Shown here piece by piece: positions 1 through 50,597 of a stretch of DNA of 64,000 bases (position 1 is the first letter of the stretch; each line of letters starts with the position of its first letter). Source of the stretch: Alphaproteobacteria bacterium (lineage in GTDB: Bacteria > Pseudomonadota > Alphaproteobacteria > UBA7887). Where the stretch lies: NCBI GenBank assembly GCA_965216755.1, contig CBDCGL010000011.1, forward strand, positions 1,184,001 to 1,248,000, read 5' to 3'. The position numbers were made by a program, and so were the translations under genes. The notes beneath the pieces are model-generated. The model saw only the letters and a list, made by a program, of their open reading frames with translations. It was not told the DNA's origin and did no database searches.

Positions 1-1128
1 ATCGTCGCCAAAGGGTTTGCCGCCGACGATACGGCGCGTGCCCAAACACGGGCGCGCGCGCTTACCGATAAGCTTCAGGACACAAGACTGTCTTTCCCCG
101 CGCTATACGGCCAATGTGTTTTTCATACGGTGCGTTCGGAACATCGGCGCGGCCAAGACGTCGCGCGCGAGTTCTTGGACTTGGCGAACGCAAAAGGCGA
201 AGCTGGATCTAGGCTTGTCGGCCATCGCATCATGGGCTTGACGGACATTTACCTTGGTGCGCCGGCGTCCGCCGTGCGCCACCTTGAGAAAGCGCTGTCC
301 CTCCACGATCCGGACGCGCATGGCGGCATGGCGTTTCACTATGCGCAGGATCCGAAAGTCGCGACACTCGCTCTGTTGTCGTGGGCCTACTGGCTCGTTG
401 GTCGTTTTTCAGACTCGATTGGCGCATCGACCGAGGCCCTGGCCGGTGCACGTGCCATGGGTCATAGCCACACTCTCGCCTATGCCTTGTTTCACGCCGG
501 TATTCTGCCGAACTACTTACGGCGCGACGTGGACTCGGTCGAGAAATGCGCCCGAGAGCTCGTAGATGTTTGCGATCAAGACGATATCGTTACGTGGCGC
601 CCATTTGGTCAAGCCGCCCTGGGTTGGATCGACATTCTTCGCGGGGAGGCGAACGAGGGTATCGCACAAGTACAGCAAGTGCTGACCGCGCGGCAGGTAA
701 CGACCGCAACATTCAATAGCACGTTCTTGCACGCGTTGATCGCCGAGGGTTACACACAAACTGATCGTCCCGACCGCGCTTTGAAAACGCTGGACGCGGC
801 GCGCGCCTTCACTGCCGATACCGCGGAAGGTTGGCTTCGGTCCGAGCTCGCCCGTATGACCGCCGATGCGCTGAGACTCTTGCCCGACACAACGCTGTCT
901 GATGTCGAGCAAAAGCTTTGCCATGCCGTGGACACCGCATACAAACAAGACGCGTACGCATTTGCGCTGCGTGCCGTCGCCGCGCTGGCGGAACATTGGC
1001 ATGATCGGGATGACGACCAAAGAGCCGCCGACTTGCTTCGGCCCATTGTCGCCCGGTTCGGCGAAGAAAGGACCTTGACCGAAGACCTCCGCCACGCAAG
1101 ATCTTTGCTCGATCAACTGCGCCGCTAG
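1..1128 (+). CDS. C-terminal part (TPR-like region) of an adenylate/guanylate cyclase-AAA ATPase-type protein; 5' end lies outside the window
   Basis: Frame open from base 1 (IVAKGFAADDTARAQTRARAL...FPALYG) into ORF 130-1128; YAQDPKVA...GHSHTLAYALF and AEGWLRSELAR...FALRA patterns typical of this family. Confidence 0.75.
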   Translation: MVAKGFAADDTARAQTRARALTDKLQDTRLSFPALYGQCVFHTVRSEHRRGQDVAREFLDLANAKGEAGSRLVGHRIMGLTDIYLGAPASAVRHLEKALSLHDPDAHGGMAFHYAQDPKVATLALLSWAYWLVGRFSDSIGASTEALAGARAMGHSHTLAYALFHAGILPNYLRRDVDSVEKCARELVDVCDQDDIVTWRPFGQAALGWIDILRGEANEGIAQVQQVLTARQVTTATFNSTFLHALIAEGYTQTDRPDRALKTLDAARAFTADTAEGWLRSELARMTADALRLLPDTTLSDVEQKLCHAVDTAYKQDAYAFALRAVAALAEHWHDRDDDQRAADLLRPIVARFGEERTLTEDLRHARSLLDQLRR

Positions 1129-1846: not shown

Positions 1847-3739
1847 ATGGGACTCGAGAGCTTTCTTTACCAGGCCTTCGTTTACCTCTTGGCCGCCGTC
1901 GTCTCTGTGCCGATCGCAAAGCGTTTGGGCCTGGGATCCGTTCTCGGATACCTCATTGCCGGCGCCATGATTGGGCCATTCGTGTTCGGCCTAGTCGGTG
2001 ACGAAGGGACCGACATCATGCATTTCGCGGAGTTCGGCGTCGTCATGATGTTGTTTATTGTTGGCCTTGAACTTCGTCCCACATTGCTGTGGTCAATGCG
2101 TAAACCCATTGTGGGACTTGGTGGCCTACAAGTTGTTTTAACAACGTTCGTTTTAACAGTTATCGCCCTGGCAATTGGGTTGGATTGGCGCGCTGGTTTG
2201 GCGATCGGCATGACGCTGGCATTGTCATCCACCGCGATCGTCTTGCAAAGCCTGACTGAAAAGGGCCTTATCAAGACCGAGGCAGGACAATCAGCGTTCG
2301 CGGTCTTGTTGTTTCAAGACATCGCGGTGATCCCCATCCTCGCTGTTCTGCCGTTGCTCGCTGTGCCAGAGCTCGCGGACACCACCACGCATGCGCGCCA
2401 TGATACACATGGATCGAGCCTGGCACCGGACGGGCCCCCGTGGCTTCGCGCGTTGATGGTGTTTGGCGCGGTCGCGATCATCGTACTGGCCGGGCGCTTC
2501 GTCATGCGCCCGATATTTCGTTTCATCGCCGAGACCAGGTTGCGCGAATTGTTTACAGCCACGGCCCTGCTTTTGGTGATTGGCACCGCCCTGCTCATGC
2601 AGTCGGTCGGATTGTCGCCGGCGCTTGGTACGTTCTTGGCAGGTGTCGTGCTCGCCGAAAGTGAATACCGACACGAACTTGAAACCGACATCGAGCCCTT
2701 CAAAGGCTTGCTCTTGGGGCTGTTTTTCATTTCGGTGGGGGCCAGCATTGACTTCGCGTTGGTGGCGGCCCAGCCATGGACCTTGGCAGCGGTAACACTC
2801 GGATTGATGGCGATCAAACTGACGCTATTGCTCGGCGTCGGCTCCCTATTCGGCCTGTCGCTGCCGGTCAACACCTTATTCGCGTTTGCCCTAGCACAAG
2901 GCGGGGAGTTTGCTTTTGTTCTTTTCTCGTTTGCACTCAGCAACGGCGTATTGGCGGCCGATGTTGTCGGCCCACTGGTTGCCGCCGTCGCATTGAGCAT
3001 GGCGATCACACCGCTGCTACTATTAATCAATGAGCGCCTTATTCAGCCGCGTTTGACGACGCGCGGGGCTACGCGCGAGGCGGACACGATAGACGATCTT
3101 GAGTCGTCGGTTGTCATCGCCGGATTTGGCCGTTTCGGCATGACCGTGGGCCGGCTGTTGCTGGCCGCAGGCATACGCCCAACGGTCTTGGATCACGACG
3201 CCCGTCAAATCGAGTCGCTACGGCGATTTGGCTACAAGGTCTACTATGGCGACGCGACGCGGTCCGATCTGCTTGAAGCCGCGGGTTGCAAGACCGCCAA
3301 AGTCCTTGTAATCGCGGTTGACGACCAAGAGGCAGTCTTGGCAATCAGCGAGACAGCCCGTCGACATTTTCCCCATTTGCATATTTTGGCGCGTGCCCGG
3401 GACCGCCGCGACGCATACGACTTGCTTGATATGGGCATCACCGATGTGTACCGCGAGACCCTCGGCTCCGCCCTAAGCATGGGTGTCGCGGCGCTGCGCG
3501 CGGCAGGAATGCGGGCTCACCGCGCCCACCGTATGGCGCGAGCCTTTCAACACCATGATAGCGCCATGCTCAGAGACCTGGCGGCCGTACGCAAGGACTC
3601 GCGCACCTATCTGGCGCACTCGCGCGCCCGCGCCGAAGAAATATCGCGCGTGCTCGGCGCGGATCGTCAAGATCGCTACGACAGCGTTGACCATGCTTGG
3701 GGCGCGCCGCCCGTGCGCCCCGACGCCGACGAGGATTAA
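1847..3739 (+). CDS. kefC: Glutathione-gated K+ efflux antiporter KefB/KefC (CPA2)
   Basis: RLGLGSVLGYL, HFAEFGVV, ESEYRHELETDIEPFKGLLLGLFF, KTN domain IAGFGRFG. Confidence 0.92.
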   Translation: MGLESFLYQAFVYLLAAVVSVPIAKRLGLGSVLGYLIAGAMIGPFVFGLVGDEGTDIMHFAEFGVVMMLFIVGLELRPTLLWSMRKPIVGLGGLQVVLTTFVLTVIALAIGLDWRAGLAIGMTLALSSTAIVLQSLTEKGLIKTEAGQSAFAVLLFQDIAVIPILAVLPLLAVPELADTTTHARHDTHGSSLAPDGPPWLRALMVFGAVAIIVLAGRFVMRPIFRFIAETRLRELFTATALLLVIGTALLMQSVGLSPALGTFLAGVVLAESEYRHELETDIEPFKGLLLGLFFISVGASIDFALVAAQPWTLAAVTLGLMAIKLTLLLGVGSLFGLSLPVNTLFAFALAQGGEFAFVLFSFALSNGVLAADVVGPLVAAVALSMAITPLLLLINERLIQPRLTTRGATREADTIDDLESSVVIAGFGRFGMTVGRLLLAAGIRPTVLDHDARQIESLRRFGYKVYYGDATRSDLLEAAGCKTAKVLVIAVDDQEAVLAISETARRHFPHLHILARARDRRDAYDLLDMGITDVYRETLGSALSMGVAALRAAGMRAHRAHRMARAFQHHDSAMLRDLAAVRKDSRTYLAHSRARAEEISRVLGADRQDRYDSVDHAWGAPPVRPDADED

Positions 3740-3869
3740 TACAATTTATCAATAATTTACAAAATAGATCGCGGCTATTTCCTGGGTCATTTCGAGGCCA
3801 CCTCCCAGGCCCACAAAAGCCACATTAATTCGCGCCGCCGGATCGATTTTCAGAGAATGTTAAGCGAAA

Positions 3870-4487
3870 TTGGAAATTGTGAGAGGCACCGTCCATTTCC
3901 ATTGTTTGCATCTGATTTGCCGGCAACCGCTGACCAGGAGCCAATCTGTGAAAACGCGAAGTCAAGTCGTTGCTCAGGGACAGGCCCACGATTGCGAAGT
4001 CACGCAATTGTCCAATGGCGCCGCGCGCGTCCGTTTGCCGGCGGACATCGCGGAATCCGACGACCTTTATCTTCGGTTGCCTGGGCCAAATGACATCAAA
4101 TGCGAGCTCTTGTGGCGAAACGGCCAGGAAATGGCCCTCCGCCTGCTCGACGACCCTGGTTCAGAAGACCAGACCCCAGCCATCGAGCAGGACGAACAGC
4201 GCCGGTACAGCCGTACCGCGGTCATGTGGGTCGGGACGATCAGCTCGATCAACGGCACCAGCTCTTGCGACGTCATCGATGTGTCCGCGTTCGGTGCCGG
4301 TCTGTCCATTCCCGAGGGCGTCGAATGCGGCAAATGGGTGATCCTGGCCACAAAGCGGCTGGAAGAAACGCCGGGGCGTGTCGCCTGGATTGACGGCGAC
4401 CGCATGGGCATCGAATTTCTGGAGGATCCCGACGTCGTCGCGCGCCGCCTGGCACAAGCGATTCCGCCACCCGCGAAAAAGTCGTAA
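3870..4487 (+). CDS. PilZ domain protein (probably two PilZ-like domains)
   Basis: QRRYSR (RxxxR) and DVSAFG (DxSxxG) in C-terminal half; degenerate QLSNGAA N-terminal half; start uncertain. Confidence 0.75.
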   Translation: MEIVRGTVHFHCLHLICRQPLTRSQSVKTRSQVVAQGQAHDCEVTQLSNGAARVRLPADIAESDDLYLRLPGPNDIKCELLWRNGQEMALRLLDDPGSEDQTPAIEQDEQRRYSRTAVMWVGTISSINGTSSCDVIDVSAFGAGLSIPEGVECGKWVILATKRLEETPGRVAWIDGDRMGIEFLEDPDVVARRLAQAIPPPAKKS

Positions 4488-4493
4488 TGGGGC

Positions 4494-5378
4494 CTATTGG
4501 CCTGTGAGCTGACGCGACGGCGCACGAGACAGAAACTCAAGGATCGCGCTGTTGCGATTTGGCCATTTCGTGTGTGGACCCTCTCCCTCACAATAGAGCG
4601 TCTCCACGCCACCCTCGCAGTTTTCGTAAGCGACACAACTTTCCGCGTTACGCGGGCGCGGTTCGCCATCGCATTTGTTGCAGGCGGCCCACCATGCCGC
4701 CGTTTCCGCGCCCAAGCCGGGAAACAAACGATCGTCGCGACTGTGCAGGACCATCACTGATGTAGGGTCCGGGCAAGACTGATTAGCAAGATCGTCGCCG
4801 CCCAGCCCGGCCGCGCTGGGCGCGATTGCCGCCGCCGCGATCGGCGACTCCTCGAGAAACGTGAGAGCATTGGAGACCAGGCCGCCATTCGAATGGCCGG
4901 TCATGAAAACACGGGTTCGATCGATACACCAATCGTCGGCCACGAGATTCGGAATTCGGCCGAGCGCTAGGATACTCTCGACCGACATTTCCGCATCGTC
5001 AGCAAACGCCACGATAAATCCGGCCGCCGTCGCTTGCCGGGTAATTCCAAGCAACCTTTCAGACGCGGCGCGGCTGCGACCACCCGGTGCATAGACCATC
5101 AACAACGGATGCGCTACATCCGCACGATAGTTGCCGGGCGCACGCACGCTGTATCCAAACCCACTCGGCGACTGAAGATCATTGGTCGCACCACCCCGCC
5201 CCACGCGCCCAGCAGAGTCACAAACACCAATTGATGTTTCGGCAGGGTAGTCGTGTTCCGCCGGCTGATCGCGGCGGCGCGCGTCTTCGACCGCAAGCCG
5301 TTGCCAGGCCAAATAAATCACGACGGCCGCGACGAAACCCGCCATCCAAACAACGTTTGACGACACCCTAAGTTTCAT
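4494..5378 (-). CDS. Membrane-anchored alpha/beta esterase, PHB-depolymerase/LpqC-like family
   Basis: N-terminal TM helix; GHSNGG nucleophile elbow; LHSRDD and GPHTKWP Asp/His motifs; WWAACNKC. Confidence 0.75.
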   Translation of the reverse strand: MKLRVSSNVVWMAGFVAAVVIYLAWQRLAVEDARRRDQPAEHDYPAETSIGVCDSAGRVGRGGATNDLQSPSGFGYSVRAPGNYRADVAHPLLMVYAPGGRSRAASERLLGITRQATAAGFIVAFADDAEMSVESILALGRIPNLVADDWCIDRTRVFMTGHSNGGLVSNALTFLEESPIAAAAIAPSAAGLGGDDLANQSCPDPTSVMVLHSRDDRLFPGLGAETAAWWAACNKCDGEPRPRNAESCVAYENCEGGVETLYCEGEGPHTKWPNRNSAILEFLSRAPSRQLTGQ

Positions 5379-5498
5379 CGGCCGACGATGGCGCCACTAT
5401 TGCGCGCAAGAGAATTCGCGCGAATCACACCGCCACGACCGCGCGCGCCGCGCAGGTCCGCCCCGCCTAGCCAAAGCCATGCAGAATTCTGTGGGTCT

Positions 5499-5588
5499 TG
5501 CAGCCGCACATTGCAACGCAGCATTACGTCGTGAACATCCTCAGACATCGGCTAAATCAATGAAGATTGTCGATATTGCAGTGCAGAA
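5499..5588. promoter_or_regulatory. Cluster of PhaR/AniA-like boxes
   Basis: TGCAACGCAGCA 5512-5523 and TGCAGTGCAGAA 5577-5588 fit TGCRNYGCASMA (recalled rhizobial PhaR pattern); TGC-N4-GCA variant 5499-5510. Confidence 0.5.
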
Positions 5589-5648
5589 TGACGCGATTTA
5601 GCAAGATTAAAGCGCGTCTGCTATCGGACATAACAAGGGCCAAGACGC

Positions 5649-5662
5649 TTGAACAGGATCAA
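5649..5662 (+). promoter_or_regulatory. FNR/FixK-like binding box
   Basis: TTGAA-CAGG-ATCAA, one mismatch to TTGAT-N4-ATCAA, 113 bp upstream of xmoC. Confidence 0.55.
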
Positions 5663-5775
5663 AATCTTGTGACAACATGACCTGAAAGCCAACATGGTTA
5701 TGAATAATAAGAACAAGTCGCAATTGGCGAGGACGCCAACTTCGGACAAATGGTTGAAAGATTCATGGGGACAAA

Positions 5776-6576
5776 GTGATGGCCGTAACAGCAGAACTTA
5801 GAACGGCAGAACAGGTACGCGCCGAATCCGCCTCGTCGGATGACAGCATGTCGGTGAGTGGATTGATTCCATGGCAACCCATTCTTCTTTTTGTCGCCAT
5901 CGTGACAACCGCCATGATCGGCGTGCGCATTTACCAGCAGATATTTGGCTGGACCGCGGGCCTCGACTACTTCGAACCCGAGTTTCAGACCTACTGGATG
6001 AATTTCTTGTATGGCGAATGGATCTTGGAAGCGGTCTTGGCAACCACGATTTGGGGCTACATTTGGATGACCCGCGATCGTGACCTAGCCAACCTATCGC
6101 CACGCGAGGAGCTGCGTCGCTATTTCAGGGCAGTCGCGATGATCTTTGCGTACGTCTTTATCATCTATTGGACCGGCAGTTTCTTCGCCGAACAAGACGC
6201 ATCATGGCACCAAGTGGCGATCCGCGATACCGATTTCACGCCGAGCCACATCCCGCTGTTCTACCTAACGATGCCCCTTTACGTCATCTTTGGCGTGGCG
6301 GCGTTTTTATATGCGCGGACGCGTCTGCCGGAATTTGCCAACAGAATCTCCGTGCCCTTCGTCATTGGAGTTGCCGGGCCGTTCCTCATTCTGCCAAATC
6401 TGGGCTACAACGAGTGGGGGCACACATTCTTTTTCATGGAAGAGCTGTTTGCTGCGCCAATTCATTGGGGATTTGTCGTCCTCGGCTGGTCGGCGCTGGC
6501 ATTGGGCGGGTTACTTCTGCAGTTGCTTCGGCGCATGGTCGAGTTGACAAACATCAACGCCACTGAGCAACCATAG
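5776..6576 (+). CDS. xmoC: Copper membrane monooxygenase subunit C (PmoC/AmoC family)
   Basis: GLDYFEPEFQTYW, EQDASWHQVAIRDTDFTPSH (CuC D/H/H), LPNLGYNEWGHTFFFMEELFAAPIHWGF (CuD N/H/H). Confidence 0.97.
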   Translation: MMAVTAELRTAEQVRAESASSDDSMSVSGLIPWQPILLFVAIVTTAMIGVRIYQQIFGWTAGLDYFEPEFQTYWMNFLYGEWILEAVLATTIWGYIWMTRDRDLANLSPREELRRYFRAVAMIFAYVFIIYWTGSFFAEQDASWHQVAIRDTDFTPSHIPLFYLTMPLYVIFGVAAFLYARTRLPEFANRISVPFVIGVAGPFLILPNLGYNEWGHTFFFMEELFAAPIHWGFVVLGWSALALGGLLLQLLRRMVELTNINATEQP

Positions 6577-6605
6577 ACGTCAAACTTATCCAGCAGGATT
6601 GGTGG

Positions 6606-6651
6606 GAATCATGACGGAGGCGGTCGATGGTGGCGCGCCTCCATTTGATTC
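6606..6651 (+). other. Intergenic stem-loop between xmoC and xmoA
   Basis: GAATCA..GGAGGCG (6606-6622) pairs with CGCCTCC..TGATTC (6636-6651); no U-tract. Confidence 0.55.
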
Positions 6652-6727
6652 TGAAACGCCGGCCGGCGCCAATTCCGCCGAGAAAAAGATAACAGGCACG
6701 ACTGAAGACAAGGGGTAGGATTAGACC

Positions 6728-7483
6728 ATGGCTGTCACGGAATCCACGCCAACGTCGGCCATTCGGAACGCCGACGAGCAGCACAGAACTGAGGTTGCTT
6801 TTGATGTGTTGGCCATCCCAACGATCGCGATCGTTCTCCTGGCCGCGTTTCATCTGCATTTCATGCTAACCGCCGGCGACTGGGATTTTTGGACCGATTG
6901 GAAAGATCGCCGCTGGTGGCCCCTGATCACGCCAATCACCCTGATCACATTTCCGGCGGCGGTACAATATCTTCTATGGTCCAAGTTCCGCATCCCATTC
7001 GGCGCCACGGTCTGCATTGTGCTGATCACGATCGGCATGTGGATCAGTCGTAGCGTGCAGTTCGTCGGTTGGGCATATTACCCGATGAGTTTCGTTTGGC
7101 CGGCCATGTTTATACCGATGGCGCTCGTGCTCGATTCCGTGTTGGTGCTGACAAGAAGTTACCTGCTCACCGGCATCTTCGGCGGTTTCATATGGGCTGT
7201 GGTCTTCTATCCAGCGAACTGGGCGATATTAGCCCCCTATCATTTGCCCATTGAGTTGCACGGCGTGCTGATGACCCTGGCGGACCTGCAGGGTTACATG
7301 TATGTGCGAGCGGGCACACCTGAGTACATTCGGATCATCGAAGAAGGAACCCTGCGCACATTTGGCGAACATGTCACACCGATCACGGTATTCTTTGCCG
7401 CCTTCGTGTGCATTCTTATGTATTTCTTGTGGAATCGTATCGGCGCGTTCTTGGCTCGAACGACCTGGGTGAAGAGGGTATAG
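6728..7483 (+). CDS. xmoA: Copper membrane monooxygenase subunit A (PmoA/AmoA family)
   Basis: HFMLTAGDWDFWTDWKDRRWWP, FYPANW, YVRAGTPEYIRIIEEGTLRTFG. Confidence 0.97.
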   Translation: MAVTESTPTSAIRNADEQHRTEVAFDVLAIPTIAIVLLAAFHLHFMLTAGDWDFWTDWKDRRWWPLITPITLITFPAAVQYLLWSKFRIPFGATVCIVLITIGMWISRSVQFVGWAYYPMSFVWPAMFIPMALVLDSVLVLTRSYLLTGIFGGFIWAVVFYPANWAILAPYHLPIELHGVLMTLADLQGYMYVRAGTPEYIRIIEEGTLRTFGEHVTPITVFFAAFVCILMYFLWNRIGAFLARTTWVKRV

Positions 7484-7487
7484 AGCC

Positions 7488-8747
7488 ATGAAACATCCAC
7501 AGGTAAGCCCAGCGGGCCGCTTCGGACTGTTCACATTGGCGGCCATCGTGGCTGTTCTGAGTATCGCTTGGAGCGCGCCGGTCGGCGCGCATGGTGAAAA
7601 AGCGCAAGAAGCGTTTCTGCGCATGCGTAGCTTGCATTGGTTCGATACGGAGATTTCGCCGCGCCAGGGCTCTATCAACGACATAGTCACGGTAACAGGC
7701 AAATTCCGGACCTCAAAGGCATGGCCCATGGCCATTGCCCAGCCCGACGTGGCGTTTCTCAACATTGGGGTCCCGGGTCCAATGTTTGTGCGCTTGGAGT
7801 CGTTCATCAACGACGTCAATATGGTGAATTCGACCAAATTCGAATTGGGCGCCACATACGAATACAAAGTGGTGTTGAAAGCACGGCGCCCCGGACGCTT
7901 TCACATCCACCCCCTGATGAACATTCAGGACGCCGGCCCGTTGGTCGGACCCGGCGTGTGGGTTGACATCGCTGGCGATCCCGCACACTTCAAGCATGAA
8001 GTGACGGCCCTTACGGGCGACGTCGTCGATTTGGAAACCTATGGCCTCGCCAACGTTGTTCGTTGGCACGCGCTGTGGTTCGTTATCGGCGCGGCATGGC
8101 TCGTGTATTGGCTGTTCTTTAAAGGTCGCTTGTTGTTGCCGCGCTATCGGAAAGTTGCGATGTTGGGCGATGATGCCGATAGCATGATCACGCCGATGGA
8201 CCGCCGATTTGCGCTCGGGCTATTGGCGGCGACGTTGACAATCACTGCGTTCGGCTTCTATTGGGCGGACGCAAAGTATCCCGTGACCGTGCCACTGCAA
8301 ACCGGCCGCGTCATCGTTCCGCCGTTGCCGGAACCGGATGCAACCGTCGATCTCAAATTGAAAGAGGCGAAATACGAGATCCCCGGCCGGCGGCTAACAA
8401 TCCAAACGACGATCACCAACGACACCGACAACGGCGTGCAGGTTGGAGAGTTTGCCACGGCGAACGTGCGTTTTATCAACGACGCAGTGCTCGATATACA
8501 ACCGATCGATTCACATGATTTGGTTGCGCCCAGTGGGTTGCGCATTGAGGGTGGCCCAATTCCGGCAGGTGAAAGCCGGGCGATTACATTGATCGCTGAG
8601 GATGCTTTGTGGGAGACGCATCGTCTGTCGCGGCTGATCTATGACCCAGATAGCCGCTTTGCGGGTCTCGTGTTCTTGTACGACGATCAAGGCAATCGCT
8701 CGGTTGTTGAGGTCGAAGGACCGATGCTGCCCACTTTTTCGATGTAA
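7488..8747 (+). CDS. xmoB: Copper membrane monooxygenase subunit B (PmoB/AmoB family)
   Basis: Signal peptide then HGEKAQEAFLRMR; LKARRPGRFHIHP (CuB HxH); two TM helices; RLSRLIYDPDSRFAGL. Confidence 0.97.
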   Translation: MKHPQVSPAGRFGLFTLAAIVAVLSIAWSAPVGAHGEKAQEAFLRMRSLHWFDTEISPRQGSINDIVTVTGKFRTSKAWPMAIAQPDVAFLNIGVPGPMFVRLESFINDVNMVNSTKFELGATYEYKVVLKARRPGRFHIHPLMNIQDAGPLVGPGVWVDIAGDPAHFKHEVTALTGDVVDLETYGLANVVRWHALWFVIGAAWLVYWLFFKGRLLLPRYRKVAMLGDDADSMITPMDRRFALGLLAATLTITAFGFYWADAKYPVTVPLQTGRVIVPPLPEPDATVDLKLKEAKYEIPGRRLTIQTTITNDTDNGVQVGEFATANVRFINDAVLDIQPIDSHDLVAPSGLRIEGGPIPAGESRAITLIAEDALWETHRLSRLIYDPDSRFAGLVFLYDDQGNRSVVEVEGPMLPTFSM

Positions 8748-8786
8748 CGTGACCGGTCGCACCGGCGACACAAGGAGGAACGGCCT

Positions 8787-9398
8787 GTGGCAAGATTCCT
8801 GACTGCCGCCCTTGTTGTTTTGTTTTGCTTAAATTGGCACACTGAGGCGGTGCGCGCGCATGGTGGTGTGTCGATCGAAGATGACATGTGTGTGCTTACG
8901 GCTGGGATTTATCGCGCGCATTTTACTGGTTATCAGCCGAGCAAGCGCGGCGCCCAAGAATTTTGCGAAGATATCCCAGAGGTAAGCCGAGCAATTATTG
9001 TCTTGGACTATATCGACCGGAAAATGCGCGAGTTGTCGGTTGACTTCCGAATCATTGTTGACGCGCAAAGTATTGGCAACACCGCAACATATGCGGATTT
9101 GGGGACCGAAGACGATATTCAAAAAAACACGATTTTCTATAAGGAAGCGGAGGTCTACAAAGCTGGTACGATCACCGTTGAATACGACTTTGATACGGCA
9201 GGCCAGTATATTGGCATCTTGACGGGGATCGATGACGATTTAGGCGAAACCTATATATCCGTGTTTCCGTTCTCGGTCGGTGTCACGTCTTATGCCACAT
9301 ATGTCCCCGTGGCGCTGGGCATTGTGGCGTTCATCGGCTTAATCTACTACTTCTCCGAACGAAAAAAGCGGCAGGACGCGCAGCGAAAGACGGCCTGA
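8787..9398 (+). CDS. PmoD/AmoD-family periplasmic copper protein with C-terminal membrane anchor
   Basis: AAGGAGG RBS; signal peptide then AHGGVSIEDDMC...HFTGYQP...EFCEDIP; C-terminal TM; directly after xmoB. Confidence 0.85.
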   Translation: MARFLTAALVVLFCLNWHTEAVRAHGGVSIEDDMCVLTAGIYRAHFTGYQPSKRGAQEFCEDIPEVSRAIIVLDYIDRKMRELSVDFRIIVDAQSIGNTATYADLGTEDDIQKNTIFYKEAEVYKAGTITVEYDFDTAGQYIGILTGIDDDLGETYISVFPFSVGVTSYATYVPVALGIVAFIGLIYYFSERKKRQDAQRKTA

Positions 9399-9474
9399 TG
9401 TTGCGAGCCGCCGGTTCAAGTCGTGTGCACAATGCTGGTCGTGCTGCCGCCTGTTATGGGGTGAAGGGTCATTC

Positions 9475-11169
9475 GTGAGACTCCTAGTCCTCTTTCTGAC
9501 CGCACTCTTTCTGGGGGCAGTAGCCATTTTGCTCTCCCCGCCAAGCTTGTGGCCTGAAGGTTTCCGGTCATTTTACCACGCGACATTTGGTGAATTTGCT
9601 TATCGCGCGCCACCACCAAGCTTAGCCAGCAGCACCGATGAACCAGAAGCGCCTTGTGACGGTCACGATGCGTCTTGGCGCAAATCCCAGACCATCGACG
9701 GTGTTGAGATTGAGGCGTCTCTGGCCTGTAACCCAGATAATCCCGCCGCGGTGGCGTCTTTCGTGAGGGGTACGAACAACGTCTCGCACATGACGTTGAT
9801 GGAAACGCAGCTGGCACCGGACGCAGTGATCAAAGACAACGACCGCGACGGCGATGGTGACCCGGACGAAATCCACATACGCCTGGAAGTCGTCGAATTG
9901 AATGGCGGGTCACCGGATCACAACCAGCTCGTACCGGCCTATGCCATCGCGCCGGGTGTACAACCGGGGTTTTGGGTCTTCGCGCCGAAAACACGTGGCA
10001 TGGCAACGGATAACCTTGAGGACCTGATCGCGAACCGCCTATTGCGCGTGCCATCACCGGTCATTCGCATCGAGAAAGGCGACGATGTCCATATCACGCT
10101 GGAAAATACCCACTACATGCCGCACACGATCCACTTTCACGGTGTCGATCACCCGTATATCGATGCGAATGGCGAAGGCAATGATGGAGTCCCACAAACC
10201 AGCGAAAAGCCAGTTATGCCCGGTGAAAGCCGCACCTATGACATGAGCCCCCGACAGACCGGTTCAATGTTCTATCACTGCCACGTTCAGCCCGACGTCC
10301 ATATCCTGATGGGATTGCAGGGCATGTTTGTGATCGAAGACGCGCGCGCCAACAATTGGGTGCAAACCCTGAACGTCGGCGCGGGTCAAGTTCGACAACG
10401 GTCTGTCGCTAGCCATCAATCGTATGATCGCGAGTATGACCTGCACTATCAGGATATTGACCGAGAGCTGCATGAGCTTATCCAAGTTTCGAACGATCCG
10501 CGCCTGATCATCAAAGACGCGCACCGCGCTTACGATGTTACGGAGCGCACGGCCGACTACTTCATGCTCAATGGTCGCTCGTTTCCGTACACCTTTCGCG
10601 AATCTCTGGTGGTCGTACGGCCCAATGAGGACGTCAAACTACGCGTCGCCAATGGCGCGGCCGAGGGCATCGCCTTACATACCCACGGTCACAAAGTCAC
10701 GATCACGCATTATGACGGTGTCGAACATAATCCCGCGGCACAAATCACGCGCGATGTGGTCAGCATTAGCCCCGCCCAACGAGTCGATCTGTTGCTGGAC
10801 ACGACCGATGACGGCCTGCACAGCTATGGTGAAGGTGTTTGGCTGATGCACGACCATCGGGAAGTTGGCATCACAACGGACGGGATCAGTCCGGGCGGCA
10901 ATGTCGCAGCCATCGTTTATGAAAGCTTTCTGGACGAGAACGCCTGGCCAAGAACACAGGGCGTCGATTGGTCGTCGTTCTTCACGCCAGAATATTACGC
11001 ACGGCAATTGCCAGTTTGGCTTTCGTATGATCTGCGCGGCGTCCTTGGCGACACGGCGGCAGGCCCCCTTCTCACAGTTCGCATTATTCTGTTTGCGATC
11101 GCCATTGGCCTGCTCGTCGGTGTCATCATCTTGATCCTGCGCGATGTTCGGACGCGCAGTGGACAGTAA
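9475..11169 (+). CDS. Membrane-anchored two-domain multicopper oxidase
   Basis: HTIHFHG and YHCHVQPDVHILMG (T1 Cu in domain 1); LHTHGH and MHDH (no Cys) in domain 2; hydrophobic N- and C-terminal segments. Confidence 0.85.
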   Translation: MRLLVLFLTALFLGAVAILLSPPSLWPEGFRSFYHATFGEFAYRAPPPSLASSTDEPEAPCDGHDASWRKSQTIDGVEIEASLACNPDNPAAVASFVRGTNNVSHMTLMETQLAPDAVIKDNDRDGDGDPDEIHIRLEVVELNGGSPDHNQLVPAYAIAPGVQPGFWVFAPKTRGMATDNLEDLIANRLLRVPSPVIRIEKGDDVHITLENTHYMPHTIHFHGVDHPYIDANGEGNDGVPQTSEKPVMPGESRTYDMSPRQTGSMFYHCHVQPDVHILMGLQGMFVIEDARANNWVQTLNVGAGQVRQRSVASHQSYDREYDLHYQDIDRELHELIQVSNDPRLIIKDAHRAYDVTERTADYFMLNGRSFPYTFRESLVVVRPNEDVKLRVANGAAEGIALHTHGHKVTITHYDGVEHNPAAQITRDVVSISPAQRVDLLLDTTDDGLHSYGEGVWLMHDHREVGITTDGISPGGNVAAIVYESFLDENAWPRTQGVDWSSFFTPEYYARQLPVWLSYDLRGVLGDTAAGPLLTVRIILFAIAIGLLVGVIILILRDVRTRSGQ

Positions 11170-11171
11170 CA

Positions 11172-12182
11172 ATGTTGCGACAAATAATCGTTGTCGGACT
11201 TGCTTTGTTGCCGTGCATCACCGCACCGGTCGAAGCACAACAAGAGACCGGCGCCGACGCGCAGAGTGACGATGGCGGCGTGACCGTGCCCGCCATGCTC
11301 AATGCGATTTCGCCGGACGGGGATAACGTCAACGTAACACATGGTCCCATTCCGGATATCGGTTGGCCGGCCATGACCATGGATCTGGGCCTGGGGCCAG
11401 ACGCCGAGATCGGCACTTTGGGACCCGACGATCCGGTCATGATGACGTTGGACCGCGATGAACAAGGCATGTACCGGATTCGGGAACTTCGCGCGGGCGA
11501 CGACCTCGAAGCCTCGACGGTCGAGGCGCTCCAGGCCGCGCGCGCGCGGACGGGCGGCGACGGCGGCGGCGACCATAGCGATCACCATGATCACGCCATG
11601 ACTATGGATATGGAAGGCATGGTCATGAACGAAAATGCCAACGAATTGCCCCAAGATTGCGCCGAAATCTCTGGAGACCACGAATTTGCGGTCCATGCTG
11701 GACACAAATACGCCCTGGCCCACGCCGGAACGATGTTCGGCTACGACCAAAACGTTTTTCGCGTGCCGGCATGTGCGCGCATCACGGTCACGCTCGTGAA
11801 CGACGACCAGATCCGACATCAGTGGATGGTGCACGGTCTGCCGCGCTACCTATATCAGCAAGGCATGTTCCACCTGGAGGCCGTCGGCGGCGCCCAAAAG
11901 ACAGGCACTTTCATCGTGCCAAGCACGCCACGTACGTATTTGATCCACTGCGATATCGCCCAGCACATGGAAATGGGCATGAAAGGGCAGCTCGTGGTCG
12001 CGGGTGGCGACGGCGATCTTCCTAGTATTCCCGGCGTATCGGGTGCGCGTCGACCGGACAATTACCGGCCGGGCGGATCGTCGTGGCGCATTGTCCTTGC
12101 GTGCGGCATCGCCGCCTGTGTCGCGGCGGCAATATTGGCCGTCGGTACGACTGTGACGAAGTCGCATCGGCGCGGTGGCTGA
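11172..12182 (+). CDS. CusF-like copper chaperone fused to a cupredoxin domain
   Basis: THGPIPDIGWPAMTM (CusF H/W/M/M); His/Met-rich linker DHSDHHDHAMTMDM; HQWMVHG and HCDIAQHMEMGM T1 Cu motif; C-terminal TM. Confidence 0.8.
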   Translation: MLRQIIVVGLALLPCITAPVEAQQETGADAQSDDGGVTVPAMLNAISPDGDNVNVTHGPIPDIGWPAMTMDLGLGPDAEIGTLGPDDPVMMTLDRDEQGMYRIRELRAGDDLEASTVEALQAARARTGGDGGGDHSDHHDHAMTMDMEGMVMNENANELPQDCAEISGDHEFAVHAGHKYALAHAGTMFGYDQNVFRVPACARITVTLVNDDQIRHQWMVHGLPRYLYQQGMFHLEAVGGAQKTGTFIVPSTPRTYLIHCDIAQHMEMGMKGQLVVAGGDGDLPSIPGVSGARRPDNYRPGGSSWRIVLACGIAACVAAAILAVGTTVTKSHRRGG

Positions 12183-12260
12183 TAAGCGACCGACGCGCTT
12201 GTTCTGAAGTCCCGCGCGCGGCAACCTTAACCGACGCATGCGTAGGAGGTATTGGGACCC

Positions 12261-13130
12261 ATGATCCGATTTGAGGCCTTGACACCCCGGTTCGGTGTCG
12301 CCGCTTTTGGCGTCGACCTGGCCAAAGGAGTTTCGGATGAAGATTTTCGCAAGCTTGTCGACGCGCTCTATGAAAACCGCGTGCTGGTGATCAAAAATCA
12401 GAGCTGTGACAAACAGACCTATCTTGATTTTGGTCGGCGCTGGGGCAGGCCAATCCCACATGTGCTGGATCACCTGCGTATGGCTGGATTTCCCGAAATG
12501 CTGGAGATCGGCAATACGCCATCGCATTCGGTCGCGCCCGAAGTCCGCAACGGTGCCGCGTTTTGGCATACGGACCAGTCTTACGACACAGAGCCTGCCA
12601 TGGTCACGATGCTCTATGCGCAAAAGGTCCCGGCGGTCGGTGGTGAAACACGTATCGCGGACATGTGTGCCGCCTATGACGATCTCGATGACTCGATGAA
12701 GGCACGCCTGAACGGCATGGAAGCGAACCATTTCTACGGTGCCGGAGAGTTGAAAGAAGGCGAACATCGTGCCGCGCCATTGATCAACCCGCGACAGGCT
12801 GCCGAGGTCCCGCCGATCTGTCATCCCATCGTTCGACCGCATTCGGTGACCGGCCGCAAGGCGCTGTACGCGGTCGCCGGGACAGCGTATGACATCGAGG
12901 GTCTGGATAGCGACGCCGCGACCGAGCTGCTGATCACCCTGCGTGACCACGCCACCCAACAGAGATATGTGTATGAGCACAAGTACGAGGTTGGCGACAT
13001 CGCCATCTGGGATACGCAGCTGACCTTGCATGCCGCCAAACCCATCGATCTGCCCGAAAAACCTGAACAGGAAAGGCTGTTGTGGCGAATCAGCGTTCGC
13101 GGCACGCCCGGCGTCTACGCCCACGCCTAA
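12261..13130 (+). CDS. TauD/TfdA family Fe(II)/2-oxoglutarate dioxygenase
   Basis: WHTDQS (HxD), GGETRIAD, HPIVRPHSVTGRKALY, IWDTQLTLHAA; AGGAGG upstream. Confidence 0.9.
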   Translation: MIRFEALTPRFGVAAFGVDLAKGVSDEDFRKLVDALYENRVLVIKNQSCDKQTYLDFGRRWGRPIPHVLDHLRMAGFPEMLEIGNTPSHSVAPEVRNGAAFWHTDQSYDTEPAMVTMLYAQKVPAVGGETRIADMCAAYDDLDDSMKARLNGMEANHFYGAGELKEGEHRAAPLINPRQAAEVPPICHPIVRPHSVTGRKALYAVAGTAYDIEGLDSDAATELLITLRDHATQQRYVYEHKYEVGDIAIWDTQLTLHAAKPIDLPEKPEQERLLWRISVRGTPGVYAHA

Positions 13131-13148
13131 TCACAGGGATCTTTAGAA

Positions 13149-14231
13149 ATGCGGATTGACCAGCTTCGCGCGGATCGATTTCGGCTGCCGCTTCCGGTGA
13201 CCCTATCTGACGCGACCCACGGCACCATGGCCGCGTTCGAAATCATCACCGCGCGGGTGCGTGATGCCGACGGCGCCAAGGGCATGGGCTACACCTATTC
13301 GATGGCCGGTGCCGGCGCCATTCACGCCGTCGTCGAGCAGGATCTGGCGCCGTTGATCGTCGGCGAAGACGGCGATCAAATCGAAAAACTATGGCAGCGC
13401 ATGTGGTGGCACACGCACTATGTCGGCCGGGGCGGCATTGCCGGATGCGGTATCGCCGCGATCGACATTGCGCTCTGGGACTTGAAGGCGCGTCGCGCGA
13501 AGATGCCCCTATGGCGCCTCCTTGGTGGACACGATGCCAAAGTCGCGGCGTATGCCGGTGGCATTGATCTGCAATTCCCTTTGGAACAGTTGCTCGATCA
13601 GACGCGGTCCAACCTCGAAAAAGGATTTCGCGCCATTAAGATGAAAGTTGGTCGCACACGGTTGAGCGAGGATGTCGCCCGCGTGCGTGCCATGCGTGAG
13701 CTATTGGGTGATGATTTTCCCTTGATGGTCGACGCCAATATGGGCTGGACCGTCGACCAGGCGATCCGTGCCTCGCGTCCGCTCGCGGAGCTGGATGTTT
13801 TTTGGCTCGAGGAGCCGACAATCCCTGATGATGTCGCCGGTCACGCGCGGATCCTACGTGATGGCATGATGCCCATCGCCGCCGGGGAAAACTTGCGCAC
13901 GATTCACGCGTTTCAAGAACTGATCCGCGCCGACGGTGTTTCGTTTCCCGAACCCGATGTGGCCGGCTGCGGCGGTATTACGCCGTGGATGAAGATCGCC
14001 CATTTGGCGGAGGCGGCGAACCTTCCCGTCACCTCGCACGGCGTGCACGACTTGCACGTCCATTTACTGGCCGCGGTTCCGAATAAATCCTATCTTGAGG
14101 TGCACGGCTTTGGCCTCGAGACCTATATCGAAGAACCCCTGGTTGTGGTTGATGGATTCGCCACGGCACCGGAAACAGACGGACACGGGATTGTTTTCGA
14201 TTGGGACGGATTGGAAAAGTTCCGCGCGTGA
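13149..14231 (+). CDS. Mandelate racemase/muconate lactonizing enzyme family protein
   Basis: AAIDIALWDL, KMKVG, VDAN, LEEP, AGEN, TSHG. Confidence 0.9.
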   Translation: MRIDQLRADRFRLPLPVTLSDATHGTMAAFEIITARVRDADGAKGMGYTYSMAGAGAIHAVVEQDLAPLIVGEDGDQIEKLWQRMWWHTHYVGRGGIAGCGIAAIDIALWDLKARRAKMPLWRLLGGHDAKVAAYAGGIDLQFPLEQLLDQTRSNLEKGFRAIKMKVGRTRLSEDVARVRAMRELLGDDFPLMVDANMGWTVDQAIRASRPLAELDVFWLEEPTIPDDVAGHARILRDGMMPIAAGENLRTIHAFQELIRADGVSFPEPDVAGCGGITPWMKIAHLAEAANLPVTSHGVHDLHVHLLAAVPNKSYLEVHGFGLETYIEEPLVVVDGFATAPETDGHGIVFDWDGLEKFRA

Positions 14232-14258
14232 CGCTTTCGCAAACCAACATTTGACCAA

Positions 14259-15152
14259 ATGACAACAATTCAAGCGGCCGCCGCGCCTGGTCCCGCCTCA
14301 CACAGTTTTTTCTCGCACCGTCTGCGCCTTCACTATGTCGACTGGGGCAACGAGTCGGCGCCGCCGATGATTATGGTCCATGGCGGCCGCGACCATTGCC
14401 GCAATTGGGATTGGGTGGCAGCCCGACTGCGCGACGACTACCACATCATCGCGCCGGATTTGCGGGGACACGGCGATTCACAGTGGGCGATCGGCGGTAG
14501 CTATACGCTGACCGAATATGTCTATGACTTGGCCCAACTGATCCACCAGACCTGCGTCGCTCCTGTCACGATCGTCAGCCACTCATTGGGTGGTATGATT
14601 TCGTTGCGTTATGCCGGACTGTATCCGGATAACGTGACCAAAGTCGTGTCCATCGAGGGGCTTGGCTTTTCGCCCGAGAAGATCGCGGAAGCCGAAGCCA
14701 AACCCGCTGATCAAAGGTTGACCGCGTGGATCACGCGCCTTCGAGGTCTGTCGGCACGCATGCCGCGGCGCTATCCTTCGATCGAAGAAGCTTTCCAACG
14801 CATGCAGGCGGAAAACCCACATTTGACGCCGCAGCAGGCGCGCCATCTAACCGTACACGGCGCCAACCAGAACGAGGATGGCACCTATAGCTGGAAGTTC
14901 GACAATTATGTGCGGACTTTTCCCGCCTACGACATTCCACAAGACCATCTGCATGCGATTTGGGGGCGTATCACCTGCCCCACCCTGCTCGTCAGGGGCA
15001 CCGAAAGCTGGGCCAGCGATCCGCTTGAGGACGGCCGAGCGGCGTTTTTCCAGAATGGCAAGGCTGTCAACATCGACGGCGCCGGCCACTGGGTCCACCA
15101 CGACAAGCTTGATGTCTTTATGGATTTGCTTGGCGATTTTTTAGCTGACTAA
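14259..15152 (+). CDS. Alpha/beta hydrolase
   Basis: VHGGRDHCRNWD, DLRGHGDS, SHSLGG, AGHWVHHD. Confidence 0.88.
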   Translation: MTTIQAAAAPGPASHSFFSHRLRLHYVDWGNESAPPMIMVHGGRDHCRNWDWVAARLRDDYHIIAPDLRGHGDSQWAIGGSYTLTEYVYDLAQLIHQTCVAPVTIVSHSLGGMISLRYAGLYPDNVTKVVSIEGLGFSPEKIAEAEAKPADQRLTAWITRLRGLSARMPRRYPSIEEAFQRMQAENPHLTPQQARHLTVHGANQNEDGTYSWKFDNYVRTFPAYDIPQDHLHAIWGRITCPTLLVRGTESWASDPLEDGRAAFFQNGKAVNIDGAGHWVHHDKLDVFMDLLGDFLAD

Positions 15153-15161
15153 GCAACAGAC

Positions 15162-15800
15162 TTACGACTGACCGCCGAATTTCGCAAGGCCATTCGGTAC
15201 GATTGCGGACTGCATCCAATGCCGCTCCGATCGGATGTGAGCTTCTCGGACCCATTTGGCCACACAACGGTGAAATTCACCAAAGCCGAAAGCGCTGACG
15301 CGACACACCACATAGCCCTCACTGGTCGCGGAATCGACAGCAATCGCCTTGATCCGCCGTTCATCCCATGGGCCAAGATAAAAAACGTCAGGCGGGATCA
15401 GGTCTAAAATCTTGAACCATTGGAGGGACTCGCGCCACGACAAACAAGTATTTTCATCATTCCATATCGAAAACGGAATGAAGTAACTTGGCAAGTTGTC
15501 GTATGCAACACTATGGCGGGCATAGAGGTTTTCGCCACAGACTCGCCAGCCTTCGGGTATGCGATGGCCGATTGTTGCCTGCAACTGTTTGACCCATGAC
15601 CGTGATGAATGGTGCCCACTATCCAAGGACCTTGCATGCAAGCCGTCCCTGTACAACGTGGTATTCTCGCCATCCATCTTTTCAGTGACGACGACCTCCT
15701 GGTCCGCAAACTCCGAAAGGTCTTCAATCACGACATCATCTGAGCTCCACCCCGGTGACCACGGTAAATGCGGGGTTCGTGGATACTTGTAACGTTTCAT
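15162..15800 (-). CDS. RNA ligase family nucleotidyltransferase (Rnl2-like core)
   Basis: KYPRTPHLPWSPG, motif I EKMDGEN, CGENLYARHS, EGYVV, AKWVR. Confidence 0.85.
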   Translation of the reverse strand: MKRYKYPRTPHLPWSPGWSSDDVVIEDLSEFADQEVVVTEKMDGENTTLYRDGLHARSLDSGHHSSRSWVKQLQATIGHRIPEGWRVCGENLYARHSVAYDNLPSYFIPFSIWNDENTCLSWRESLQWFKILDLIPPDVFYLGPWDERRIKAIAVDSATSEGYVVCRVSAFGFGEFHRCVAKWVREAHIRSERHWMQSAIVPNGLAKFGGQS

Positions 15801-15902
15801 TGCAAAATATTCTGTGCGCGTTCAGTCCTATGCAGCCTGCGCGATCGAGATTCAAGTCCATACCATCGCATCAGTTGTGCATTCCAACAACAGGCGCCCG
15901 CT

Positions 15903-16010
15903 CCTATTACGGTGTATTACGGTGACAGTTTACTAAATATACTATATATAGTTGGCTCTTATTACGTTTCCGGACATATAGTGTATTTAGTAAACTGTCA
16001 CCGTAATAGG
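15903..16010. repeat. Long AT-rich inverted repeat with internal tandem duplication
   Basis: Arms 15915-15947 and 15976-16008 are reverse complements at 32/33 positions, 28-nt loop; TATTACGGTG duplicated at 15905-15924. Confidence 0.9.
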
Positions 16011-29653: not shown

Positions 29654-29797
29654 CTGCAGCCCGGCATTGCCAATTGGTGCCCTGCTGGTCAGGATCTAGA
29701 TAGGCGGCCCATCGCAACCATATGCCTATGTTGAGCATTGGTGGACAACGTCACGTCCGGCGCGCAGGATTTGACAGCAAATCTAAGGAGGACCGGT

Positions 29798-40708: not shown

Positions 40709-40716
40709 GTCGTGAG

Positions 40717-42816: not shown

Positions 42817-42819
42817 GAC

Positions 42820-43119
42820 CTAGAGCAGTGTCCGACAATATTGAATCAATTCTGTTTGCGGCCCGGCGTGGCGATCCACGCGCAGGCCGGCGCAGCGCAA
42901 TGTTGTTTCATCGGGCAAGCCATTCGGCAATGTGGTCGTCCACATGGATTCCCATTGGCGTCGCCCGCCAGTCGCAAACCCGCAGGGCCGGGCGCTCTTG
43001 TGTCAAATCCAGCGCGGCGGCCCTTGGCCGTATGCTCGATACGACCGGCACGTCGCCGCTCGGCCTTGACACAAAATCGCTCCGGCAGAATGGATCAATG
43101 TTGTCGGACACTGCTCTAG
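42820..43119. mobile_element. 300-bp MITE-like element with terminal inverted repeats and CTAG ends
   Basis: TIRs CTAGAGCAGTGTCCGACAA(T/C)ATTGA match 24/25; internal IR TTGTGTCAA/TTGACACAA; partial second copy at 61177. Confidence 0.85.
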
Positions 43120-43127
43120 ACCCAGGC

Positions 43128-50343: not shown

Positions 50344-50433
50344 GGTGATATTTGCCTCACACGGCGCCACAACGACAGACGATATGTACATCGGATTGAA
50401 TTTTTGGCGCTCCCGAATATCCCGCGGCGGACC

Positions 50434-50572
50434 TTAAGGAACGGTAAATCACGACCATTGGTACCGCTCTCGGTGGGCAACAAAAACAAAGTTTCTGAAA
50501 CACATAATAATGTGATTTCGTTGTTTACCTTTTCGATTCCGCGTCCTATATCTATGGTTAACACTGGTTAAC
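50434..50572. promoter_or_regulatory. Candidate CtrA sites in the divergent fliI/ctrA promoter
   Basis: TTAA-N7-TAAA 50434-50448; ATGGTTAA (reverse TTAACCAT) 50554-50561; TGGTTAAC repeated with 10-bp period. Confidence 0.5.
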
Positions 50573-50597
50573 GTAGAAAAAAGGGGGTTTGATCGGG

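Follow-up and report, generated by a model that had tools for sequence, protein, structure and literature searches.

A putative copper membrane monooxygenase operon of a little-studied branch in an alphaproteobacterium from a mostly uncultured order

We analyzed a stretch of 64,000 nucleotides from a marine-type alphaproteobacterial genome (GenBank assembly GCA_965216755.1, contig CBDCGL010000011.1, positions 1,184,001 to 1,248,000 of the forward strand; hereafter, the window) and found an operon, built around the three genes xmoC, xmoA, and xmoB, that is predicted to encode a complete copper membrane monooxygenase (CuMMO) in which every known copper ligand is kept. The putative enzyme belongs to a little-studied branch of the family, with its nearest named relatives in the hydrocarbon-degrading Cycloclasticus, and by analogy with these, we see about an even chance that it oxidizes short-chain hydrocarbons. 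CuMMOs drive the biological oxidation of methane, ammonia, and short alkanes, and several branches of the family await a substrate. The branch described here is now tied to a nearly closed 5-Mb alphaproteobacterial genome that encodes each subunit once, along with a defined group of accessory proteins. The near-closed state of the genome and a substrate question open to direct testing make it worth pursuing.

The operon and its place in the family

Six co-directional genes separated by short gaps make up the operon, which spans positions 5776-12182 of the window:

5776-6576, + strand: xmoC, CuMMO subunit C, 266 amino acids (Pfam AmoC, 323 bits)
6728-7483, + strand: xmoA, CuMMO subunit A, 251 amino acids (Pfam AMO, 342 bits)
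7488-8747, + strand: xmoB, CuMMO subunit B, 419 amino acids, with a signal peptide (Pfam Monooxygenase_B, 461 bits)
8787-9398, + strand: xmoD, predicted copper protein of the PmoD/AmoD family, 203 amino acids (Foldseek match to PmoD, 6cpd)
9475-11169, + strand: two-domain-type multicopper oxidase (MCO), membrane-anchored, 564 amino acids, start uncertain (Pfam Cu-oxidase_3, Cu-oxidase_2, and Cu-oxidase)
11172-12182, + strand: CusF-cupredoxin protein, 336 amino acids (Pfam CusF_Ec at 39-107 and Cu-oxidase_2/Cupredoxin_1 at 185-277)

An initial annotation, made from the sequence alone, had described three intact genes in C-A-B order carrying motifs for the copper sites CuB, CuC, and CuD. That description is borne out by the exact coordinates, the Pfam and NCBIfam scores, and a ligand alignment. 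The same annotation took the operon to be complete as three genes; xmoCAB stands, whereas the extent does not, given the three further genes that run on to 12182.

The Pfam matches of all three subunits cover nearly the full models at scores far above the cut-offs, and the proteins also exceed the cut-offs of the NCBIfam models AmoC/A/B_BACT and TIGR03078/80/79. xmoC has a GTG start at 5776 and a possible ATG start one codon on, at 5779. Aligned with the solved Methylococcus capsulatus chains, XmoB (403 bits to PmoB) has identical residues at the CuB positions (His35, His139, and His141), and XmoC (292 bits to PmoC) has identical residues at the CuC positions (Asp141, His145, and His158) and at the CuD positions (Asn212, His216, and His230). 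We take these residues to be the copper ligands from the structural literature on particulate methane monooxygenase (pMMO). Two motifs singled out by the initial annotation are present, DWKDRRWWPL at XmoA 57-66 and PIDSHDLVA at XmoB 339-347. The genome holds one copy each of xmoC, xmoA, xmoB, and xmoD.

We placed the enzyme by protein searches and two trees. The proteins nearest to XmoA came from metagenomes (78-79% identity), and the nearest named ones were from Cycloclasticus (59-63%) and then from Methylococcales (about 50-54%). A search with one genome per species gave 536 confirmed matches; among the best 80, the nearest was a same-family metagenome-assembled genome (MAG) labeled "Alphaproteobacteria bacterium" (74%), followed by four Cycloclasticus genomes (58-63%) and two "delta proteobacterium" MAGs (55-58%). 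In a concatenated XmoC, XmoA, and XmoB tree (27 rows, 907 columns; support as ultrafast bootstrap/SH-aLRT), the window and five loci of its own order form a clade (100/100) that is sister to one type of Cycloclasticus sequence, copy 1 (100/99). Twelve Methylococcales-type loci form a separate clade (100/100) that excludes the window. A further, divergent xmoCAB is present in two of the four Cycloclasticus genomes (L113, G042:C6; L114, G041:C14), with about 45% XmoA identity to the window. These second copies fall elsewhere in the tree, as do the two outgroups, plasmid records of Methylomagnum for Pxm (L107) and of Mycolicibacterium chubuense NBB4 for the actinobacterial HMO/BMO (L106).

A broader XmoA tree of 149 rows puts the window in a 10-row clade (98% SH-aLRT) with the five loci of its order and four further proteins. 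Cycloclasticus lies two steps farther out (90%) in this tree, whose deep support is weaker than that of the concatenated tree. The second Cycloclasticus XmoA copy groups there with 275-amino acid proteins and not with copy 1. Two proteins, the 275-amino acid P0109 and the 251-amino acid P0107, were tried as labels for Nitrosomonas-type AmoA or alphaproteobacterial PmoA in the tree, and both were rejected because they score about 290 bits to everything.

These comparisons revise the earlier view of the operon in two respects. The PIDSHDLVA segment had been associated with the PxmB-type branch; we found the pattern P-[IVLA]-DSHD in XmoB of the order's loci and of Cycloclasticus copy 1 and in neither the one Pxm reference nor the HMO reference, so that the association is not supported. 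The lineage had also been called unclassified. It does lie outside the Methylococcales pMMO, and XmoCAB is not nested in that characterized clade, but a lineage that is sister to a Cycloclasticus copy and present in 5 of the 22 other genomes of the order is not wholly unclassified.

The three genes downstream of xmoB all encode predicted copper proteins. xmoD begins 40 bases past the end of xmoB, and its product has no match in Pfam or NCBIfam. Its AlphaFold2 model, built with seven homologues (mean pLDDT 80.9), combines with a signal peptide to give a periplasmic beta-sandwich and a C-terminal membrane helix (helix 169-202 of the model). The best Foldseek match in the Protein Data Bank was the soluble domain of PmoD (6cpd; E 7.7e-13, TM score 0.87 by target, 28-30% identity). 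Cys35 and Cys60 are invariant in seven of seven aligned homologues, as is a His-Gly-Gly stretch after the signal peptide. Fisher et al. 2018 (PMC6189053) name a signal peptide, an invariant pair of cysteines, and a membrane helix at the C terminus as features of the PmoD family, and on the strength of the model, we assign the product of 8787-9398 to the PmoD/AmoD family. The text of the same paper distinguishes a CuA-forming class with C-x7-M-x-H from a C-x9-H class that binds copper without CuA spectra; XmoD has C35-x9-H45 and lacks the CuA-forming motif.

Among solved structures, the MCO scores best against 2zwn (116 bits) and 3g5w (104 bits), both of them two-domain MCOs and the latter presumably a Nitrosomonas europaea chain. 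The CusF-cupredoxin protein has a His/Met-rich linker between its domains and a C-terminal membrane helix, and it found no solved relative at E 0.001. Our comparison took in 87 CuMMO loci, of which 80 came from named genome records, five from the host order, and two from plasmids. In 13 of them, homologues of the MCO (51-66% identity) and of the CusF-cupredoxin gene adjoin xmoCAB or pmoCAB, always as a pair, and the full order CAB-D-MCO-cupredoxin is shared by the window and seven other loci (L002-L007 and L077). We had considered the pair as a signature of the clade and dropped the idea on this count, as the pair also stands beside Methylococcales-type pmoCAB. It recurs across several CuMMO clades and is, therefore, no marker of substrate; we regard it as a candidate general accessory module of CuMMOs. 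Scans of the window gave 3 promoter-like sites (4.1 expected) and 11 terminator-like sites (7.4 expected), neither of them usable, and no Rfam family was found in the window.

Host and origin of the operon

The initial annotation had placed the contig in the Alphaproteobacteria and reported ctrA, which we confirmed at 50589-51323 (400 bits on NF045991, cut-off 350). GlyS (40717-42816, - strand) has no more than 62% identity to any public protein, and its named matches, at 57-60%, come from MAGs of Rhodospirillaceae and Hyphomicrobiales and from Sneathiella, Iodidimonas, and Azospirillum. Placed by one protein (GlyS), CtrA, and the group codes of the genome set, the host is an alphaproteobacterium of a small, mostly uncultured order, which the species set represents by 23 genomes, all of a single family and divided among eight genera. 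A CuMMO occurs in 6 of these 23 genomes (the window's own and five others, one of the five being a public MAG), spread over four genera. It is rare in the class as a whole: among 401 evenly sampled genomes, three have one, namely the window's own, one of its order, and one of another family.

The last of these is the sole CuMMO outside the host order among the 401 genomes. It lies at L132 (G291:C97:3633-7340), has 45% (XmoA), 48% (XmoB), and 49% (XmoC) identity to the window, and is followed by an xmoD-like gene. Elsewhere in the window, glyS forms a pair with glyQ beside pyruvate phosphate dikinase (38057-44003), and ctrA lies in a chemotaxis and flagellar block (49018-57038) that comprises a FliI-type ATPase (49018-50391), CheR (51427-52341), CheB (52239-53378), and CheA (54285-57038).

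Such a patchy distribution, 6/23 in the order and 3/401 in the class with the window's genome included, is what a foreign or misassembled insert might leave, whether by recent horizontal transfer, chimeric assembly, or a binning error. The GC content of the operon points the same way: at 0.562 against a genome mean of 0.592, it falls in the lowest 10% of same-size windows. Nevertheless, we consider an insert of this kind extremely improbable. The operon is embedded 1.19 Mb deep in a contig of 4.85 Mb, and the genome is 99.82% complete. Its tetranucleotide composition does not stand out (of 300 randomly drawn windows of equal size, 56% deviate from the genome average at least as much), and its third-position GC of 0.58-0.70 resembles that of its neighbors (0.67-0.69). 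No tRNA genes were found, the flanks hold no repeats beyond short chance-level matches, and no transposase or integrase was seen among the annotated flanking reading frames. The sequences of the order also form one clade in the CuMMO tree, as expected of inheritance or of exchange within the order.

Read data bear on the linkage and chimerism check that the initial annotation had proposed. The stretch or part of it appears in five rows of sequencing runs from two studies, with partial coverage in X3 and X4; no RNA run is among those listed. A 13,914-base contig of run X1 covers window positions 2021-15934, and thus both borders of the operon, with zero differences, and fragments of run X3, from a second sample of the same study, are identical to the window. 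X1 is possibly the source sample, and its contig is, therefore, not independent support; within that limit, there is no sign of chimerism. Run X5, with about 250 bases within xmoB only, was not used.

Candidate substrates

We favor short-chain hydrocarbons as the substrate because of the Cycloclasticus neighbor, the many ethanol-type dehydrogenases in the genome, and the missing modules for C1 metabolism and autotrophy. In such a pathway, the substrates of XmoCAB would be small hydrocarbons, namely alkanes from C2 to about C5 and possibly alkenes, and hydroxylation would turn them into alcohols. Ethanol-type PQQ dehydrogenases would oxidize these further and so feed standard heterotrophic metabolism. 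XmoD, the MCO, and the cupredoxin might load or reoxidize copper for XmoCAB or pass electrons to it, and a separate hydroxylamine oxidoreductase (HAO), encoded outside the window, may remove or exploit hydroxylamine formed when XmoCAB co-oxidizes ammonia. In the text of PMC12510462 available to us, Cycloclasticus symbionts "likely metabolize short-chain alkanes," a pHMO is the sole hydrocarbon monooxygenase detected in one MAG that bloomed on n-pentane, and the peptides detected under n-pentane included some from an "unknown" pHMO clade close to pMMO. The sponge-symbiont Cycloclasticus genome in our set has a single match, of the copy 1 type. An alkane substrate of Cycloclasticus is reportedly also described in Rubin-Blum et al. 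2017.

The genome has many candidate alcohol dehydrogenases. It encodes 12 PQQ dehydrogenases, of which eight lie above the cut-off of the methanol/ethanol family TIGR03075 and four are weaker. We compared 11 of the 12 with five reference enzymes, taken from two methanotrophs and one Cycloclasticus. None exceeded 40% identity to any of the five; the best identity to a methanotroph methanol dehydrogenase (MDH) was 39%, and the methanotrophs' own two types share 49%. The nearest solved relative of the best-scoring PQQ dehydrogenase is a quinoprotein ethanol dehydrogenase (6zcv). For another, nothing turned up among solved chains at E 1e-100, which means only that none is that close. Most carry a D-[YFW]-D motif, which we take to be the lanthanide-type signature. 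One PQQ dehydrogenase lies in the window itself (29738-31603), scoring 426.6 against the TIGR03075 cut-off of 480 and showing no more than 31% identity to methanotroph MDHs. The statement in the initial annotation that the window holds no hao, mxaF, or xoxF is thus correct in the strict sense, the genome's sole match to PF13447 lying outside. Yet another PQQ dehydrogenase is found at L098:12324-14150, 7.6 kb upstream of the window.

Key modules of other lifestyles were missing. The genome gave no match to the RuBisCO large subunit or to Fae and hexulose-phosphate synthase (the serine cycle and the glutathione- and folate-linked formaldehyde routes were not searched), and its NirK matches reach at most 54 bits against a cut-off of 296. 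A genome scan suggested at the outset thus found no close MDH, Fae, or hexulose-phosphate synthase, and it did turn up hao. The host had been described as not obviously a methanotroph or nitrifier; the usual modules of methanotrophs and autotrophic nitrifiers are indeed absent from our matches, whereas the nitrifier-type hao about 95 kb off keeps ammonia a live candidate substrate. Elsewhere on the contig (C11:250653-252551), a frame of 340 amino acids resembling a beta subunit is followed by an alpha subunit frame of 510 amino acids of a soluble di-iron monooxygenase, an order that we take to be typical of phenol/toluene-type enzymes. Judged by its sequence, this would give the genome another oxygenase that acts on hydrocarbons or aromatics.

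Several observations weigh against short-chain hydrocarbons. No alkane-specific or alkane-pathway genes were found among the annotated reading frames beside the operon. The substrate has been measured for no member of the clade, and the alkane substrate of Cycloclasticus is itself inferred; from the accessible text of PMC12510462, we could not tell whether the copy 1 clade corresponds to its "unknown" or its "group X" clade. In six Methylococcales-type loci (L018, L046, L047, L050, L053, and L061), the MCO-cupredoxin pair immediately precedes pmoCAB. Of the order's six genomes with a CuMMO, five (all but a 92%-complete MAG) also have HAO, a pattern that is compatible with ammonia too. Finally, the trees contain no named sequences of ammonia monooxygenase (AMO), Nitrosococcus, or alphaproteobacterial pMMO, and exclusion from those clades therefore rests on scores to solved chains. 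The flanks of the Cycloclasticus and "delta" loci likewise showed no alkane-pathway gene; they hold unrelated genes, for an SLT/solute-binding protein, a DegP-like protease, a VTT-domain protein, and a methyltransferase.

The presence of HAO keeps ammonia alive as a substrate. XmoCAB would then be an AMO and the host a heterotrophic or mixotrophic ammonia oxidizer, in which HAO oxidizes hydroxylamine and a cytochrome b and c-type heme protein pass the electrons to the quinone pool. The gene belongs to an operon 38 kb past the end of the window:

G000:C11:1284932-1289180 (L096:14932-19180), - strand: hao operon of four genes, encoding a cytochrome b, a heme protein, haoA, and a haoB-like gene

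HAO (604 amino acids, eight CxxCH motifs) is the genome's only match to the multiheme HAO family PF13447. It aligns end to end with solved chains named hydroxylamine oxidoreductase (683-688 bits), and its PGGWAYSEGW matches PGGWTYTEGW of a solved chain; the stretch PGGW-x-Y-x-EGW presumably holds the cross-linking tyrosine of HAO. The other members are a cytochrome b (233 amino acids, PF00033), a membrane protein of 226 amino acids with one CxxCH, and a haoB-like protein of 367 amino acids. This arrangement is conserved in seven relatives' loci (the 226-amino acid protein in 7/7, the cytochrome b and haoB each in 6/7, the misses falling at locus ends), and its gene content suggests that the operon may be a hydroxylamine:quinone module replacing c554/cM552. 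Moreover, all three Xmo subunits exceed the NCBIfam AmoA/B/C_BACT cut-offs, but the label does not discriminate, being carried by Methylogaea and Methylococcales proteins too. Scores to solved chains favor gammaproteobacterial pMMO over AMO in every subunit (300 vs. 260-270 bits for A, 292 vs. 242-249 for C, and 403 vs. 316-333 for B), and the chains of alphaproteobacterial pMMO rank last among the solved ones, falling short of gammaproteobacterial pMMO in each subunit. The distribution of HAO also argues against a link: it occurs in 11 of the 23 genomes of the order, the window's own included, six of which have no CuMMO (four of these are 98-99% complete), and beyond the order it was found in none of the five genomes that hold the closest CuMMOs (those of four Cycloclasticus and of one MAG labeled "delta proteobacterium"). 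HAOs of 52-57% identity are found in many other bacteria, such as Thioalbus, Hyphomicrobium, and Methylocella, which to our knowledge are not nitrifiers. With hao far from xmoCAB, NirK below its cut-off, and RuBisCO not found, we think an ammonia monooxygenase unlikely. A further step, in which the CuMMO-bearing members of the order would be new alphaproteobacterial ammonia oxidizers, heterotrophic or mixotrophic, that lack the Calvin cycle and NirK and feed the quinone pool from HAO through the cytochrome b and heme c in place of c554/cM552, seems to us quite unlikely. If they were ammonia oxidizers, the xmo-linked MCO and cupredoxin might handle NO or hydroxylamine and not copper.

Beside the hao operon, and convergent with haoB, lie genes for a 2Fe-2S subunit, a molybdopterin-binding subunit (749 amino acids), and a cytochrome c (L096:11536-14856), which by sequence resemble a membrane-linked molybdenum hydroxylase or aldehyde dehydrogenase. 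A family of proteins of about 1,100 amino acids with SAM, nucleotide-cyclase, AAA, and TPR domains has one member that ends in the window (C11:1181691-1185122, window positions 1-1128) and another about 10 kb from hao (L096:2261-5626). We rejected this putative regulator as a link between xmo and hao, since the genome has at least nine near-full-length paralogues.

Methane, oxidized by a pMMO in an unconventional methanotroph with noncanonical alcohol dehydrogenases and another formaldehyde route, stays in consideration because of the closeness to pMMO and because some formaldehyde routes lay outside the search. Each of the three subunits has its best solved relative in gammaproteobacterial pMMO, the copper ligands are fully retained, PQQ dehydrogenases are plentiful, and the MCO-cupredoxin pair is shared with the six Methylococcales-type loci. 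Sponge "Deltaproteobacteria"/Binatota with divergent pmoCAB are credited with methane oxidation in passages of PMC9999580 and PMC8941161. We nevertheless judge methane very unlikely, given that the clade falls outside the Methylococcales pMMO group (100/100), that Fae, hexulose-phosphate synthase, and RuBisCO were not found within the search described above, and that none of the PQQ dehydrogenases compared exceeds 40% identity to methanotroph MDHs. The rest of the genome likewise speaks against conventional methanotrophy and against autotrophic nitrification, and oxidation of short-chain hydrocarbons is the reading that we prefer.

Divergent CuMMOs in unexpected hosts have already been reported regularly; accessible portions of the literature describe them in Methylophagaceae and unbinned clades (bioRxiv 10.1101/2025.02.04.636526), in Binatota (PMC9999580), and in Skermanella and Bradyrhizobium (PMC6215863). 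The literature covered, which included few subscription journals and no supplements, contained no account of this clade or its host order, nor of the gene order CAB-D-MCO-cupredoxin or a hao operon linked to cytochrome b. Should cultivation or labeling of the organism or its order succeed, the substrate of the branch would become measurable, and by extension, that of the Cycloclasticus copy blooming at seeps and spills. The MCO-cupredoxin pair provides candidates for the copper-loading or electron-donor partners of CuMMOs, and the hao operon with its cytochrome b offers another starting point, for work on hydroxylamine oxidation beyond the known nitrifiers.

Comparison with known systems

The actinobacterial HMO and Pxm, the outgroups of the trees, belong to the CuMMO family as well. 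The HMO of strain NBB4 shares the CAB gene order but differs in identity (44/31/35% for A/B/C) and lacks the P-x-DSHD segment of XmoB. Pxm is closer in identity (49/41/50% for A/B/C) and also lacks the segment, and its gene order is ABC, in contrast to CAB in the window.

The Nitrosomonas-type pairing of AMO and HAO resembles the window genome in its three-subunit CuMMO, in the PmoD/AmoD-family gene after subunit B, in an HAO that aligns with the solved chains and is followed by a haoB-like gene, and in a two-domain MCO related to chain 3g5w. It differs in that solved AMO chains score below pMMO and in that the window genome has no RuBisCO match and a NirK below the cut-off. The hao of the window genome is also unlinked to xmoCAB and lies in a cytochrome b operon, whereas Nitrosomonas-type hao presumably sits with c554/cM552.

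PmoD of Methylocystis sp. Rockwell (6cpd) matches XmoD in fold, signal peptide, the two cysteines, and the C-terminal helix; unlike 6cpd, XmoD has C-x9-H in place of the CuA-site motif C-x7-M-x-H. Gammaproteobacterial pMMO provides the best solved relatives of all three subunits and shares the CuB, CuC, and CuD positions and the CAB order. Some Methylococcales loci add the same MCO-cupredoxin pair. However, the Methylococcales enzymes form a clade of their own, with identities of 50-54% (A), 43-45% (B), and 50-57% (C) across five loci, and the window genome lacks the Fae and hexulose-phosphate synthase matches and the close MDH homologue of these methanotrophs.

The nearest counterpart is the pHMO copy of Cycloclasticus, known from sponge and mussel symbionts and from free-living MAGs. 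Its host is gammaproteobacterial, with a genome of 1.7-2.2 Mb and no HAO match in four genomes, and its XmoD has C-x7-M-M where that of the window has C-x9-H. In contrast to these differences, the enzyme itself is the sister clade of the window's order in the concatenated tree, shares 58-63% (XmoA), 59-67% (XmoC), and 49-51% (XmoB) identity with the window, and has the same CAB-D-MCO-cupredoxin gene order and the same P-x-DSHD segment in XmoB.

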